NCBI RefSeq assembly: GCF_046105845.1
Contig: NZ_CP151004.1
DNA from: Escherichia coli
GTDB taxonomy: Bacteria > Pseudomonadota > Gammaproteobacteria > Enterobacterales > Enterobacteriaceae
Strand: one strand, 5' to 3'
Length of the DNA stretch: 64,000 nt
Part shown: positions 2,479 through 46,072 of the stretch, piece after piece
How the letters are laid out: every line of letters starts with the position of its first letter
Position numbering within the stretch: position 1 is the first letter of the stretch
Position numbers and translations under genes: made by a program
The notes under the pieces: generated by a model
What the model was told of the DNA's origin: nothing
Seen by the model: the letters and a program-made list of their open reading frames with translations, nothing else
Databases searched by the model: none

Positions 2479-3762
2479 TTACCGTTTGTAATCGATGGCT
2501 TCTGGCTGCTCCAGATATACGGTGGTTTGTGCTGGTTGGGTGCTGGCAATCACCTTACCGCCACGTACCGAATAGCGCACCGGAACCTGACGGCGCAGCG
2601 CGTCAAACCCATTTTCAGCCGGCAGGATAATCAGGTTGGCGCTGTTTCCGGCGGCAATGCCGTAATCCTGCAAATTCAACGTCCTGGCACTGTGGTGGGT
2701 GATTAAATTCAGGCCATCGTTAATCTGCCCGTAGCCCATCAGCTGGCAAACATGCAGCCCCATATGCAGCACTTGCAGCATATTCGCCGTTCCCAGCGGA
2801 TACCACGGATCGAAGACATCATCGTGACCAAAGCAGACGTTAATGCCGGACTCCAGCATCTCTTTAACGCGCGTGATGCCGCGACGTTTTGGATAGGTAT
2901 CGAAACGTCCTTGTAGATGAATATTGACCAACGGGTTGGCGACAAAGTTAATACCGGACATTTTCAGCAAGCGGAACAGGCGTGAGGTATACGCCCCGTT
3001 ATAGGAGTGCATTGCCGTGGTGTGGCTGGCGGTGACTCGCGCGCCCATGCCTTCACGGTGCGCCAGGGCTGCAACGGTTTCGACAAAGCGCGACTGTTCG
3101 TCATCGATCTCATCACAGTGAACGTCGATGAGACGGTCGTATTTTTGCGCCAGGGCGAAGGTTTTATGCAGCGACTCCACGCCGTATTCACGGGTAAATT
3201 CAAAATGCGGAATCGCCCCCACTACATCTGCCCCTAAGCGTAACGCCTCTTCCAGCAACGCTTCACCGTTGGGATACGACAAAATCCCTTCCTGCGGGAA
3301 GGCGACGATTTGCAGATCAATCCACGGCGCGACTTCCTGCTTCACTTCCAGCATTGCTTTCAGCGCAGTCAGCGTTGCGTCCGAAACATCGACATGGGTA
3401 CGCACATGCTGAATGCCGTTGGCAATCTGCCATTTCAGCGTTTGCCAGGCGCGTTGTTTCACATCGTCATGGGTTAATAACGCTTTGCGCTCGGCCCAGC
3501 GTTCAATGCCTTCAAACAGCGTGCCGGACTGATTCCAGTTCGGTTGTCCGGCGGTTTGCGTGGTGTCCAGGTGAATATGCGGCTCCACAAACGGCGGTAT
3601 AACTAAACCTTGTTCGGCATCCAGGCTGTTTTCAGTTATGGGCATCACCCCGGATTGCGCATCAATGGCGCTGATTTTTCCGTCCAGCAGATGAATCTGC
3701 CACAGCCCCTCTTTGCCGGGTAACCGGGCGTTAATAATTGTCTGTAAAGCGTTATTCGACAC
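2479..3762 (-). CDS. codA: Cytosine deaminase
   Basis: ORF track gives 432 aa from an upstream near-cognate codon; recognised CodA begins at the GTG encoding [16 protein letters not shown]... (427 aa); amidohydrolase metal-binding HxH motif (PHIHLD). Confidence 0.92.
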
Positions 3763-5011
3763 TGTTAGCCTCCACATGCGTCATTGCTGCTGTCGTTTTG
3801 CGATTCAAAATCGGGTTAAGGATCAGATAGCTCAGCGCGCCACCTAATACCGCGTTGACCGGAACAATACCCGGTAACCAGTGGCCTGCGGCAATCCCCA
3901 GCGCGACCGCCAGAATCGCCACCCAATTGACACTCATCATACGCGTGGTCGCAAAGTGCTCATAGCGGCGACGGTTCATCAGATAGTCAGCGATGATCAC
4001 GCCCCCTACCGGAGGAATAGCTGCCGAAAGGAAGGTCAGCCAGCCGACAAAATTGTTATACAGCCATAATGCGCAGACCGTACCGATAATACCGTTGATT
4101 ACCGAAAGGGTTTTGCTCGACATACCAGTAATGTTGGCGAAACCTAAGCCCGACGCATAGAGCGCGTTATCGTTGGTGGTCCAGATATTCAGCCCCAGCA
4201 CCACAATCGCAGGCAGCAGCAGACCCTGAGCAATCATCACATCAGAGATATCCGCCATCCCCAGTGCCGCCGCGCCCGCTGCACCGAAAATAAACATCAA
4301 CGAGTTGCCGAGGAAAAAGGCCACCATCGCCACCAGCACCGCCAGTTTGGCATTACGACCAAACCGGACAAAGTCAGCGGTGAGCGTGCCCGCACTGATA
4401 AATGACCCCACAACCAGCGCCAGCGCGACATTGAAATCTAACGGTTGTGCGGGAACGACCGCTTTTAATGCGTCCAGGCCGCCCATGCCGTTAACGGCCA
4501 ACCACACGGAATAACCGCCAAGACAGGCGATAGCCGGAACTGCAATCACCGAAAGAACCATCAGCGCCGAAATGCCAAAGAAGACGGTGACGGTCATCAG
4601 TAAACCGGAGACGGCAATCAGCAAATTAATATCCAGCCCGGTTGCCTTGCCCACCGGAATGGCAAACATCGCCACGCCAACGCCAAACCAGCCAACCTGG
4701 GTGCCGCCCAGCAGCAGTGAAGGCAGCCATGAGCCTTTAACACCAAAAGAGAAGCGAGCAAGAAGATGAGTGGTCAGGCCGGTTTTTGCGCCAATGTAAC
4801 CAAGAAATGAAGTGTAAATACCGAGGAGAAGATTACCGATGAGGACTGCGAGGAAGAAATCATGATAGCTAAGACCGGTTCCGAGAGTGCCGCCGGTCCA
4901 CATACTGGCGGAAAAGAAGGTTAATCCCAGCATGACGAACGTCAATGCCAATACCCCTTTCCGCGCCGACTGCGGGACTGGCCCTTGGCTAAAGTTGTTA
5001 TCTTGCGACAC
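3752..5011 (-). CDS. codB: Cytosine permease (NCS1 family)
   Basis: 419 aa polytopic membrane protein with GTG start, overlapping the codA start by 11 bp; recognised as CodB. Confidence 0.93.
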
Positions 5012-5077
5012 GAAATTCCCCCTTTTTGCTGTCTGAAACCCAAAAAATCCGCCGCATTCTATTCATCTGAAGATAAA

Positions 5078-5093
5078 AAGCAATCGTTTTCGT
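5078..5093 (-). promoter_or_regulatory. PurR-box-like operator upstream of codBA
   Basis: AAGCAATCGTTTTCGT resembles the PurR consensus (GCAAACGTTTNCGT-like palindrome), about 70-80 bp upstream of the codB start; codBA is known to be purine-repressed. Confidence 0.4.
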
Positions 5094-5177
5094 AGGGAAA
5101 TATATTTTTTATATGAATGAGTGCAAAAAGGTGGGGGAAAAATTATCGGTGTAAAAACAGTGGGTAGCCATAATAAG

Positions 5178-5245
5178 ACGCGGTAAGCGTCGCATCAGGC
5201 ATCGGCGCATGGTGTCGGATGCGCCAGGCGACGCATCCGACAATA
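5178..5245. repeat. REP-type palindromic units (BIME-like) between prpE 3' end and the codB promoter
   Basis: Two GC-rich imperfect palindromes: GACGCGGTAAGCGTCGCATCAGGCAT and GTCGGATGCG-CCAGGC-GACGCATCCGAC; these resemble E. coli REP consensus sequences. Confidence 0.5.
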
Positions 5246-5247
5246 AC

Positions 5248-7134
5248 CTACTCTTCCATCGCCTGGCGGATCTGATCCAACGACGCAGGATCATCAATGG
5301 TCGTCAGATCCCCAGGATCGCGTCCTTCACAAATCGCCTGGATCGTGCGGCGCAGCATTTTTCCGGATCGCGTTTTCGGCAATTGCGAGACAAACCAGAC
5401 GTGCGCCGGGCGACCAAAGTTGCCAATCTGGCTGTCCACCAGCGCCATAATCGCCTTCTCTTGCGAATGCGCCACCTCGCGGTCTTCCAGACTGTCGCTC
5501 TCTTTCGGAATGACAAACGCCACCGCCACCTGCCCTTTCAGCGCATCTTTCACCCCAACCACCGCCACTTCGGCAACGCCCGGATGACTGGAGATACTCT
5601 CTTCAATCTCGCGCGTCCCCAGCCGATGCCCGGCAACGTTAATCACATCGTCAGTGCGCCCGAGAATAAAGTGATAACCGTCAGCATCGCGGATACCCCA
5701 GTCAAAAGTGGCGTACACCGGACGGGAAAACAGCGACCAGTACGTCTTCACAAAGCGGTCGTCGTCGCCCCAGATGGTCTGAATACAGCCCGGCGGCAGC
5801 GGCCCTTCTACCACCAGCATCCCTTTCTCGTTGACGCCACACGGTTCGCCGGTGACTTCATTAAGCAACTGCACGTTATAGCCATACATCGGCACGCCGG
5901 GGCTTCCCAGACGCGTCGGCCTGTCGTCCAGACCGCGAGCAATCGCCATAATCGGCCAGCCGGATTCGGTCTGCCAGTAGTTGTCGATGACCGGCACATC
6001 CAGCGTATTGCTCACCCAACTGGCGGTCGGCTCGTCCAGCGGTTCTCCAGCCAGATAGAGCACTTCCAGCGACGAGAGATCGTGTTTGCGAATTTCAGCG
6101 GTAGGGAATTTTTTCAGCACGCGTATGGCGGTCGGCGCTGAGAACATGCGGCTAACCTGATATTTCTCGACGATTTTCCACCACACGCCGCAGTCCGGCC
6201 AGGTCGGTAATCCTTCGTAAACGATAGTCGCCATCCCCGCCAGCAGCGGCGCGTAGACGATATACGAATGCCCCACCACCCAGCCGATATCCGAAGCACA
6301 AAAGAACACACCGCCCGCTTTGCCGCCAAAAATGGTGTCCATCGAGGTCGCCAGCGCCACCGCATATCCGCCGACGTCACGCTGCACGCCTTTAGGTTTG
6401 CCGGTCGTGCCGGAAGTGTAGAGAATGCAGGAGGTTTCGTTGGATTCCAGCCACGCCACTGGCACCCGCGCGCCGATGTGTTGATGGCGCAACGACGCGA
6501 AATCGACATCCCGCCCGCTGACGCGCGCCATTTTCGCCAGCCCGCGATCCACCAGTAAAACGTGGCGCGGCTGATGCTGCGCCTGACTTATCGCATCGTC
6601 GAGTAATTTTTTATAGGGAATGATTTTGCCACCGCGCGCTCCGGCATCAGCCGAGACAATCAGCACCGGTTTAGCGTCATCAATTCGCGCCGCCACGCTG
6701 TGCGAGGCAAATCCCCCAAACACCACCGAATGAATAGCGCCAATGCGCGCGCAGGCCAGCAGGGTAATATGCGCTTCGGCAATCATCGGCATATACACCA
6801 GCACCCGATCGCCACGCTGCACGCCCAATGAACGCAACATTGAGGCCACCGCGTTCACTTCGTCATGCAGCTGACGAAAGGTAAAGGTGCGCTCTTCTTC
6901 TGTTTCCGAAGAGACGGCAATCAGCGCCAGCGCCTCTGGCTGTTTCTCCAGCCAGCGGTCGATAGCGTTGTGGCACAAGTTGGTTCGGCCTTCACAAAAC
7001 CAACGGGCAAACGGCGGATTGCTGTGATCAAGCGTTTGCGTAAAGGGCGTCTGCCAGTCAATACGCCGGGCCTGCTCGGCCCAGAACTTCTCCGGTTCGT
7101 TAATCGAACGCTGATAAAATTCGCTAAAAGACAT
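5248..7134 (-). CDS. prpE: Propionyl-CoA synthetase
   Basis: 628 aa acyl-CoA synthetase (AMP-forming) with ATG start; last gene of prpBCDE. Confidence 0.95.
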   Translation of the reverse strand: MSFSEFYQRSINEPEKFWAEQARRIDWQTPFTQTLDHSNPPFARWFCEGRTNLCHNAIDRWLEKQPEALALIAVSSETEEERTFTFRQLHDEVNAVASMLRSLGVQRGDRVLVYMPMIAEAHITLLACARIGAIHSVVFGGFASHSVAARIDDAKPVLIVSADAGARGGKIIPYKKLLDDAISQAQHQPRHVLLVDRGLAKMARVSGRDVDFASLRHQHIGARVPVAWLESNETSCILYTSGTTGKPKGVQRDVGGYAVALATSMDTIFGGKAGGVFFCASDIGWVVGHSYIVYAPLLAGMATIVYEGLPTWPDCGVWWKIVEKYQVSRMFSAPTAIRVLKKFPTAEIRKHDLSSLEVLYLAGEPLDEPTASWVSNTLDVPVIDNYWQTESGWPIMAIARGLDDRPTRLGSPGVPMYGYNVQLLNEVTGEPCGVNEKGMLVVEGPLPPGCIQTIWGDDDRFVKTYWSLFSRPVYATFDWGIRDADGYHFILGRTDDVINVAGHRLGTREIEESISSHPGVAEVAVVGVKDALKGQVAVAFVIPKESDSLEDREVAHSQEKAIMALVDSQIGNFGRPAHVWFVSQLPKTRSGKMLRRTIQAICEGRDPGDLTTIDDPASLDQIRQAMEE

Positions 7135-10826: not shown

Positions 10827-11001
10827 AATTGCCTTAATAAAATTAAATGTTTAATTTCAATTTGTTAGCAATATAGTCATGAAGTAATCCGCAAATATGC
10901 GTTTCAGTTAACGTTTCAGGCAATGTTTCACCGCGTTTCATTGCAACAATTATGAAACAAGACTAAACCCAATATTCGGTTTCTTAACTTTGCGGTGCGC
11001 T

Positions 11002-12588
11002 ATGGCACATCCACCACGGCTGAATGACGACAAACCGGTTATCTGGACGGTATCTGTAACGCGCCTGTTCGAGCTGTTTCGCGATATCAGCCTCGAGTTT
11101 GATCACCTGGCGAATATCACCCCTATTCAGCTTGGCTTTGAAAAAGCGGTGACCTACATCCGCAAAAAACTGGCAAACGAACGGTGCGACGCCATCATCG
11201 CTGCTGGCTCTAACGGCGCATATCTTAAAAGTCGCCTGTCAGTGCCGGTTATTTTGATTAAACCGAGCGGCTACGATGTGTTACAGGCACTGGCAAAAGC
11301 CGGAAAGCTCACCTCTTCTATCGGCGTTGTCACTTATCAGGAAACTATTCCGGCGCTGGTGGCGTTTCAAAAAACCTTTAATTTGCGCCTCGACCAACGT
11401 AGCTACATTACCGAAGAAGACGCGCGCGGGCAGATTAACGAGCTGAAAGCTAACGGCACCGAAGCGGTGGTCGGCGCGGGGCTGATTACCGATTTGGCAG
11501 AAGAAGCCGGAATGACCGGAATTTTTATCTATTCCGCCGCCACCGTGCGCCAGGCATTCAGCGATGCGCTGGATATGACGCGCATGTCGTTACGCCATAA
11601 CACTCACGATGCCACCCGTAACGCCCTGCGTACTCGTTACGTGCTGGGCGATATGCTCGGTCAATCACCACAGATGGAACAGGTGCGGCAGACTATTTTG
11701 CTGTATGCCCGCTCCAGTGCGGCGGTGTTGATTGAGGGGGAAACGGGGACGGGCAAAGAGCTGGCGGCCCAGGCGATTCATCGGGAATATTTTGCCCGCC
11801 ACGATGCGCGACAGGGCAAAAAGTCGCATCCGTTTGTTGCCGTCAACTGCGGGGCGATTGCCGAATCGCTGCTGGAAGCAGAGCTGTTTGGCTATGAGGA
11901 AGGGGCGTTTACCGGCTCGCGACGCGGAGGACGCGCCGGACTGTTCGAAATTGCCCACGGCGGCACGCTGTTTCTTGACGAGATAGGCGAAATGCCTCTG
12001 CCATTGCAGACTCGGCTGTTACGAGTGCTGGAAGAAAAAGAGGTCACTCGCGTCGGCGGGCATCAGCCTGTTCCGGTGGATGTGCGGGTCATTAGCGCCA
12101 CTCACTGCAATCTGGAAGAAGATATGCGGCAAGGGCAGTTTCGCCGTGACCTGTTTTATCGGCTGAGTATTTTGCGTCTGCAATTACCGCCACTGCGTGA
12201 GCGAGTGGCGGATATTCTGCCACTGGCGGAAAGCTTTTTGAAAGTGTCTCTGGCTGCGCTCTCCGCCCCGTTTTCTGCCGCCTTACGCCAGGGGTTACAG
12301 GCAAGCGAAACCGTGCTGGTGCACTACGACTGGCCGGGCAATATTCGAGAACTGCGCAATATGATGGAGCGACTGGCGCTGTTTTTAAGTGTGGAACCGA
12401 CGCCGGATTTAACGCCGCAATTTTTGCAGCTGCTACTGCCGGAGCTGGCGCGCGAGTCGGCGAAAATTCCCGCTCCACGCTTACTGACACCACAACAGGC
12501 ACTGGAGAAATTTAAAGGCGATAAAACAGCAGCGGCGAATTATTTAGGCATAAGCCGGACGACGTTCTGGCGGCGGCTGAAAAACTGA
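11002..12588 (+). CDS. prpR: Sigma-54-dependent transcriptional activator of the prp operon
   Basis: ORF track start 10990 is an upstream extension; ATG at 11002 gives 528 aa [15 protein letters not shown]...; AAA+ sigma-54 interaction domain ([26 protein letters not shown]) and C-terminal Fis-type HTH. Confidence 0.93.
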
Positions 12589-12688
12589 ACTGCCGAATGC
12601 AGCGCGAACGCTTTATCCGGCATAAATTTCAATAGATGATGATCACCGATAAACTTACGCATCGGGGATGTTTACATAGGTTTCAGAA

Positions 12689-40327: not shown

Positions 40328-40573
40328 ATTCCTACGTTTTCCTCAATTCTTCCATAAAAAAACAGCCCATTCAATTAAATAAAACACATAACATGTTGAT
40401 ATTTCTAGCTAAAGTAAAATAACCCCATGATTTGAAATGATTAATCACAAAGGTCATACCAGTGATTAACTTTTGCTCATATTGTTAAATAGCACAAAAT
40501 TAAAAACAATAAAAATCAAACAAATTAGATTTATATTCCAAGAAAATTAAATATTCAGGCTATTAAACAAAAC

Positions 40574-40589
40574 CTGACATTTTGAATCA
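40574..40589. repeat. Right inverted repeat of candidate invertible element (inside a 31 bp perfect palindrome at 40571-40601)
   Basis: CTGACATTTTGAATCA; the surrounding AACCTGACATTTTG-A-ATCAAAATGTCAGGTT is a perfect palindrome, so this end carries the repeat in both orientations, like paired recombinase half-sites. Confidence 0.85.
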
Positions 40590-40628
40590 AAATGTCAGGT
40601 TTTGTAGCAATGGCGTGGACGAGTCTGA

Positions 40629-41522: not shown

Positions 41523-41549
41523 GCACGCTGTACAGCCTGTACAGCGTGC
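41523..41549. other. Perfect 27 bp palindrome between the two regulator genes
   Basis: GCACGCTGTACAG-C-CTGTACAGCGTGC (13 bp arms); not followed by a T-tract, so it may be an operator or RNA structure rather than a simple terminator. Confidence 0.4.
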
Positions 41550-45830: not shown

Positions 45831-45931
45831 TAAACAGCATTCTGATAGAGAGTGCCTGTATAAAGCTGAAGTGACAATGACCGGGAAGGGAACCCGTTTT
45901 CAGGAATGGATGCCTGTCTTTTTCACTGTAA

Positions 45932-45960
45932 ATATCCTGGCATTACTAATGCCAGGATAT
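45932..45960. terminator. Perfect 29 bp palindrome between ykgH and convergent ykgG (candidate bidirectional terminator)
   Basis: ATATCCTGGCATT-ACT-AATGCCAGGATAT. Confidence 0.4.
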
Positions 45961-46072
45961 TTAAAGAAGAGGAGCATAACCATGACGGAACGGGGTTAAG
46001 TCAGGTTGTCCTAAACGCTATTTTCAACCTCGTATGCCTTCTTCAGGTTTATGTCCAGACTTCATATCTCTC

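Follow-up and report, generated by a model that had tools for sequence, protein, structure and literature searches.

Two palindromic units lie in the spacer between prpE and codB

The window, by which we mean the whole 64,000-nt stretch of Escherichia coli DNA analysed here, carries prpE on its minus strand (5248..7134). This gene encodes propionate--CoA ligase and is the last of prpBCDE; it was assigned from the open reading frame list, a full-length match to NCBIfam TIGR02316 (1303.8 bits) and RefSeq, and its stop codon, TAG, is read from the sequence at 5250-5248. Downstream on the same strand lie codB, encoding cytosine permease (3752..5011; open reading frame list, NCBIfam NF008241 at 694.6 bits, RefSeq), and codA (2479-3777, open reading frame list). 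The identities of prpE, codB and prpR were confirmed by NCBIfam equivalog models, and the gene names match the RefSeq annotation of a strain whose prpE-codB spacer is 100% identical to that of the window. The spacer measures 236 nt (5012-5247) and wholly contains a pair of palindromic units, denoted REP-A and REP-B, which are hence extragenic. Read along the prp sense strand, the order is the TAG stop codon, GTTAT, REP-A (5242-5213), a linker (5212-5202) and REP-B (5201-5164). The RefSeq records of K-12 and of the identical-spacer strain contain no annotated repeat feature at this spacer; the REP at the K-12 site is presumably already annotated in the GenBank/EcoCyc REP tables.

REP-A (TGTCGGATGCGTCGCCTGGCGCATCCGACA; 5213..5242, minus strand) was recognized by its inverted repeat, by folding and by alignment to the Y consensus. 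It is a perfect palindrome of 30 nt with a 13-bp stem and a 4-nt loop (−23.2 kcal/mol when folded alone), and only 5 nt separate its stem from the prpE stop codon. Its alignment to the Y consensus is weak (score 10; shuffle mean 5.9, maximum 10-12), and its 5′ arm equals that consensus at 12/14 positions. Canonical REPs carry a GTAG immediately 5′ to the palindrome foot together with a two-base mismatch in the stem, both of which are required for TnpA-REP binding (PMC3333891). The stem of REP-A has no such mismatch, and the sole GTAG nearby overlaps the prpE stop codon (GAGTAG), 6 nt off the canonical position, with an insertion, TTATTG, intervening. In Nissle 1917 the first unit has the canonical form (GTAGGTCGGATAAGG), whose TAG serves as the stop codon of prpE. 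Because its stem is perfect, its GTAG is displaced and the corresponding unit of Nissle 1917 is canonical, REP-A is best described, from its sequence, as a "perfected" and atypical Y derivative.

Over 17 nt, the final codons of prpE (TCAGATCCGCCAGGCGA, sense strand; window 5259-5275) show 88% complementarity to REP-A, namely to its loop and 3′ arm (5215-5231). The CCTGG loop allele of the window strain, itself a Dcm site, is needed for this complementarity, which could permit alternative pairing or could reflect a template-switch "perfecting" of the palindrome, and which may have arisen by chance.

REP-B (TGCCTGATGCGACGCTTACCGCGTCTTATTATGGCTAC; 5164..5201, minus strand) is a Z2-type palindromic unit identified by a Z2 pattern, by consensus alignment and by folding. 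Aligned to the Y, Z1 and Z2 consensus sequences taken from PMC11208160, it equals Z2 at 31/36 positions, with a score of 24 (shuffle mean 6.3, maximum 13). It is an imperfect palindrome of 38 nt (−15.7 kcal/mol when folded alone) and, viewed along the prp sense strand, lies in iREP orientation; its GTAG (CTAC on the opposite strand) occupies plus-strand positions 5164-5167. Its stem has the mismatch, with GC opposite TT giving a C/U mismatch in the RNA fold, and the outer stem has three substitutions relative to the consensus. Between the two inverted units runs the 11-nt linker (CCATGCGCCGA; 5202..5212, minus strand), which is defined by the alignment to the naRNA4 model described below and is constant in position in all alleles.

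A preliminary description of this DNA had reported two GC-rich palindromes past the prpE stop codon (5248-5250, minus strand), ahead of the codB upstream region, and both are there. That description called them imperfect, which holds for REP-B and not for REP-A with its perfect 13-bp stem. The interval it gave, 5178-5245, catches both units and leaves out the outermost 14 nt of REP-B, among them the GTAG/CTAC foot; the true extent is 5164-5242.

The 79 nt that follow REP-B (5085..5163, minus strand) are rich in C (28%) and poor in G (6%). On the basis of this composition, and of a link to Rho drawn from PMC6061677, the tract is a candidate Rho-utilization region. It overlaps the codBA promoter region: a consensus scan identified a sigma-70 promoter-like sequence, TTTGCA-17-TATATT (5099..5127, minus strand), presumed to be the codBA promoter, 37 nt upstream of which the REP pair lies. 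Six nucleotides past the −10 hexamer, the sequence ACGAAAACGATTGCTT (5078-5093, minus strand) resembles at 13/16 positions what we take to be the PurR operator consensus.

On the other side of the pair, the 3′ end of prpE contains seven GATC (Dam) sites clustered in about 100 nt (window 5269-5369). An equivalent cluster has been described in K-12, where a ChIP peak of RNA polymerase that depends on dam was reported some 200 bp further downstream, near the codB promoter (bioRxiv 10.1101/2025.01.06.631547). The position of that peak corresponds roughly to the REP region.

Comparison with the REP family

REP and BIME-2 elements have been known since the 1980s (Gilson, Bachellier, Hofnung), and the element in the prpE-codB spacer is of this already known kind. 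A REP is an imperfect, hairpin-forming palindrome of 30-40 nt, and a BIME-2 consists of a z2 and a y unit of opposite orientation joined by a short linker, in tandem copies whose number varies between strains (Ton-Hoang et al. 2012, PMC3333891). The arrangement found here, a Y-like unit, an 11-nt linker and an inverted Z2 unit, is the z2/y architecture of BIME-2.

Folded as RNA, the 111-nt region forms two separate hairpins at −45 kcal/mol, whereas shuffles average −30.2 (z-score −4.5), and none of the shuffles equalled it (0/200). A Z2-consensus pattern with ≤3 mismatches allowed found a single match in the 64 kb window, at 5164-5200, with 0.00 expected. The fold z-score, this unique match and the consensus score relative to shuffles together rule out chance palindromes.

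We also compared the region with the Rfam model RF02564 (naRNA4), for which a single Y+Z2 unit of REP325 served as the basis. All 77 model positions (1-77 of 77) aligned to 5166-5242 on the minus strand at 35.2 bits (E = 5e-5), a score below the gathering threshold of 59.5 bits and thus seen only under E-value thresholds. When the entire 64-kb window was searched at gathering thresholds, no Rfam family reached the required score. We read the naRNA4 match as a sign of common REP architecture and not of membership of the naRNA4 RNA family. When 5,426 complete E. coli genomes were searched with the 87-nt pair, 5,425 gave matches (E ≤ 1e-3), the median being 25 places in each. A codBA operator was ruled out because the sequence is repeated genome-wide and is not specific to this locus.

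The pair shares with the E. coli REP/BIME-2 elements described in PMC3333891 an extragenic site in a 3′ UTR, the Z2 foot and mismatch, an inverted Y-like partner, dispersal and, in other strains, a 94-nt tandem array. It differs from them in that the window has one pair only, the Y-like unit is perfect with a displaced GTAG, and the outer stem of the Z2 unit has its three substitutions. Compared with REP325/naRNA4, which lies in the yjdM-yjdN spacer of K-12, both are built of Y and Z2 units forming two hairpins and both have flanking genes that share a strand; the locus, however, is another one, the window has one unit where REP325 has six (12 hairpins), and the score falls below the Rfam threshold. 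Of the REP features tested, REP-B has all; REP-A has those of location, partner, linker and hairpin and lacks the GTAG position and the stem mismatch.

Apart from the pair, the window holds just one REP-like sequence, a lone and degenerate Y unit (TGCCGAATGCAGCGCGAACGCTTTATCCGGCA; 12590-12623, plus strand), which scores 22 against the Y consensus. It begins 2 nt past the stop codon of prpR (10990-12588, plus strand) and lacks the CTAC foot.

Array length at the prpE-codB locus varies between strains

The spacer sequence was read directly in twelve E. coli loci. Two units are present in the window, E. coli B and 2011C_4247; four in K-12, Nissle 1917 and APEC20/16; four plus an IS621 in MLI107; six in 2018-18.25PC and 98197; sixteen in FDAARGOS_1290 and O157:H7 F8092B; and eighteen in EcPF15. 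In K-12 MG1655 the spacer is 329 nt long and its four units are ordered Y, Z2, Y, Z2. The period is 94 nt in all arrays read, and where the window has the shortest allele, one pair, orthologous loci carry 2, 3, 8 or 9 pairs. With 16-18 units, FDAARGOS_1290, EcPF15 and O157:H7 F8092B surpass the figure quoted as the K-12 maximum, 12 units per REP element. All of the alleles that were read have kept the potential to form hairpins.

We further sampled 60 genomes at even steps along the BLAST ranking, in which unit numbers that were not read are inferred from the span of the match. The spans correspond to about 15 two-unit alleles, 27 four-unit alleles, 3 six-unit alleles and 3 long arrays with full coverage (16-18 units). 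Eight rows gave a partial match, two of which, read directly, have 6 and 16 units; three rows (one read) match solely downstream of the IS621 position; and one genome has no such locus. Among the 59 sampled genomes that have the locus, with spans partly read, we found no REP-less allele.

An exact 22-nt pattern from the codB leader, scanned across species, matched just 2 species representatives. In the divergent Escherichia representative SCPM-O-B-8794, nine units lie at the prpE-codB junction, with longer linkers and a prpE stop codon of TAA. As this array starts with Z2 and not with Y, the phase of the array differs between lineages.

The IS621 of MLI107 is inserted exactly after ATCAGGCCT in the last Z2 unit. 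The published natural target of IS621 is ATCAGGCCTAC (PMC11208160), and the window reads ATTATGGCTAC at the corresponding site, so that the target is lost. IS621 is a bridge-RNA recombinase element. At the IS621 point, 2011C_4247 carries TTATCAG-TATCT-ACCCACTACCCACTG, which looks like a scar from IS621 having been lost imprecisely by way of a CAG microhomology of 3 nt.

Taken with the Z2 match, the full-length naRNA4 alignment and the dispersal in the genome, the variable number of tandem copies and the presence of IS621 at a REP target lead us to conclude that the pair is almost certainly a dispersed repeat of the E. coli REP family, present as one BIME-2 unit in the prpE 3′ UTR. A REP/BIME identity had been proposed in the preliminary description from resemblance, and it was borne out by the alignment to consensus families (31/36 to Z2 for REP-B), the full length of the naRNA4 match, the roughly 25 places per genome and the BIME-2-like variation at the locus.

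Origin of the two-unit allele

In the window, REP-B bears the signature TTACCGCGTCTTATTATG, which is that of the first Z2 unit in the longer alleles of 2018-18.25PC, MLI107 and APEC20/16, and this Z2 unit is joined directly to the right flank, CCCACTG. The two-unit allele of E. coli B has a K-12-like background and a canonical Z2 unit. From the signature of a first Z2 unit on the right flank in the window, and from the different background in E. coli B, we infer that the collapse of longer arrays is the source of two-unit alleles and that it has occurred more than once. Array length would change by recombination or slippage between units, and the window allele looks collapsed. A contig labelled Citrobacter sp. 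MAG carries a near-identical two-unit allele with GCCTAC in place of GGCTAC in the window, so that the G of the window is a later substitution.

Candidate roles at the 3′ end of prpBCDE

We are confident of the explanation as a whole, namely that the pair is a BIME-2 unit in its shortest allele with the 3′ UTR roles typical of its family. On the narrower question of whether this unit acts as a 3′ stabilizer and attenuator at the prpE-codB locus itself, we see the odds as even. Upon transcription of prpBCDE, both units would fold as stable hairpins (−23 and −16 kcal/mol), which would block 3′-to-5′ exonucleases and thereby define and stabilize the 3′ end of the prp mRNA. Rho would act on the C-rich, G-poor tract just downstream, leading to attenuation and to limited read-through into the codBA promoter region. 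As the first stem begins 5 nt after the stop codon, the terminating ribosome must partly melt it, and melting of part of the REP-A stem would possibly result in less PrpE.

Each of these steps has a counterpart in published work. At Rho-dependent 3′ ends, stable stem-loops without U-tracts protect the transcript, and rut sites lie immediately downstream (Dar and Sorek, PMC6061677). REP325, with its alternating Z2/Y units, is reported in a 2026 preprint to stabilize the upstream yjdM mRNA and to cause a partially Rho-dependent attenuation into yjdN (bioRxiv 10.64898/2026.03.23.713779). REPs that lie ≤15 nt from a stop codon stall terminating ribosomes, according to Liang et al. 2015 as cited in PMC12306157. 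The locus resembles the stop-proximal REPs of Liang, Rudd and Deutscher (2015) in that the REP-A stem lies 5 nt past the prpE stop and the GTAG of Nissle 1917 contains the stop. The roles put forward in the preliminary description, a stabilizer or terminator at the mRNA 3′ end and insulation from the codBA promoter, agree with the family literature (PMC6061677; bioRxiv 10.64898/2026.03.23.713779) and with the local anatomy, in which the C-rich, G-poor tract adjoins the pair.

Several observations limit this assignment. The composition of the C-rich tract may be unrelated to Rho, since the tract is also the codBA promoter region. No prpE transcription was found in any strain of one published expression study, and neither prpE nor codB was found in the searched supplementary files of the 3′-end mapping of Adams et al. 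and of the RepRanger paper. A literature search on prpE, codB, REP, terminator and tandem repeat returned nothing specific to the prpE-codB spacer.

The tolerance of 2 to 18 units and of an IS insertion argues against tight functional constraint, and with a probability that we put somewhat short of even, the pair is a selfish or neutral remnant of a collapsed REP array, without selected function at this locus, whose last unit was simply never removed. The origin of two-unit alleles at least twice in different backgrounds (the window and E. coli B) fits such a remnant, as do the decayed outer stem of REP-B and the lack in REP-A of the GTAG position and stem mismatch that TnpA-REP binding needs, features that count against a functional REP. 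In addition, terminal REPs are not associated genome-wide with longer mRNA half-lives, and REP effects depend on context, according to a 2026 preprint. However, there were zero REP-less alleles among the 59 sampled genomes with the locus, each allele read retains its hairpin potential, and REP-A, a perfect and very stable hairpin, is not decaying. A neutral remnant is moreover compatible with incidental effects on the mRNA. A function at the level of DNA, in which the BIME-2 would be a preferred target that DNA gyrase binds and cleaves, with relief of the supercoiling that arises between the two transcription units, prp and cod, seems to us unlikely. Gyrase cleavage sites are over-represented in BIME-2 elements, with a preference for y-type units, and the enzyme cuts mainly in loops or in the non-complementary part of the stem, independently of transcription (PMC6379681). 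Only a subset of BIME-2 elements is cleaved, however, and the strong sites named in that study are arrays, whereas the window has a single unit. REP-A furthermore has no non-complementary stem region, and neither prpE nor codB was found in the supplementary files searched of PMC6379681.

Intrinsic (Rho-independent) termination of prpBCDE by the pair is very unlikely, because neither hairpin is directly followed by a U-tract. The pair is like an intrinsic terminator in being a GC-rich stem-loop structure at the end of an operon and unlike one in having no U-tract after either stem. A consensus scan flagged the inner stem of REP-B (5196-5177), followed by TTATTATGGC, but this stem has only 6 pairs, the flagged "tail" is the 3′ stem arm of REP-B itself and is paired in the minimum-free-energy fold, and the scan gave 2 sites where 0.9 are expected by chance. 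A T5 run occurs 10 nt past REP-B, whereas REP-A is followed by CCATGCGCC, without a U-tract. A few REPs are known from published work to double as intrinsic terminators, but most REPs lack the U-tract. Least probable of all, to the point that we give it hardly any credence, is that the pair encodes a non-coding RNA akin to naRNA4, associated with the nucleoid, that would bind HU and condense the chromosome. Although the match to RF02564 is full-length, its 35.2 bits are well below 59.5 and reflect only the common Y+Z2 architecture, and REP325/naRNA4 itself gave no measurable nucleoid compaction, as reported in a 2026 preprint.

Array length as a possible determinant of expression

If the BIME-2 unit does act at the 3′ end of prpBCDE, the number of units may matter. 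In every allele the first REP lies right at the stop codon of prpE, and in phylogroup-B2-like strains it supplies the stop. Array length, from 2 to 18 hairpins and either with IS621 or lacking it, could be a heritable, strain-specific dial on the read-through of propionate-induced prpBCDE transcription into codBA and on the amount of PrpE. We regard this as quite unlikely. Were it true, the two-unit allele of the window would be the "leakiest" setting.

The assignment to BIME-2 permits a correct annotation of the prpE 3′ UTR and provides a clear case of copy-number polymorphism, from 2 to 18 units, at one REP locus. The alleles form a natural series for testing the recent proposal that REPs are tunable dials on the expression of neighbouring genes. 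As a discovery the element carries little weight, since roles of REPs as mRNA stabilizers, Rho-dependent attenuators, gyrase sites and IS targets are already documented.

Elsewhere in the window we observed three long near-perfect palindromes, at 40567-40605, 41523-41549 and 45926-45966, with arms of 19, 13 and 20 nt, respectively, and 1-nt spacers. In related genomes this region is annotated with ipbA (a tyrosine DNA invertase), hyxR, hyxA, ykgH and an autotransporter, and the three palindromes could be sites for the invertase or for a regulator.
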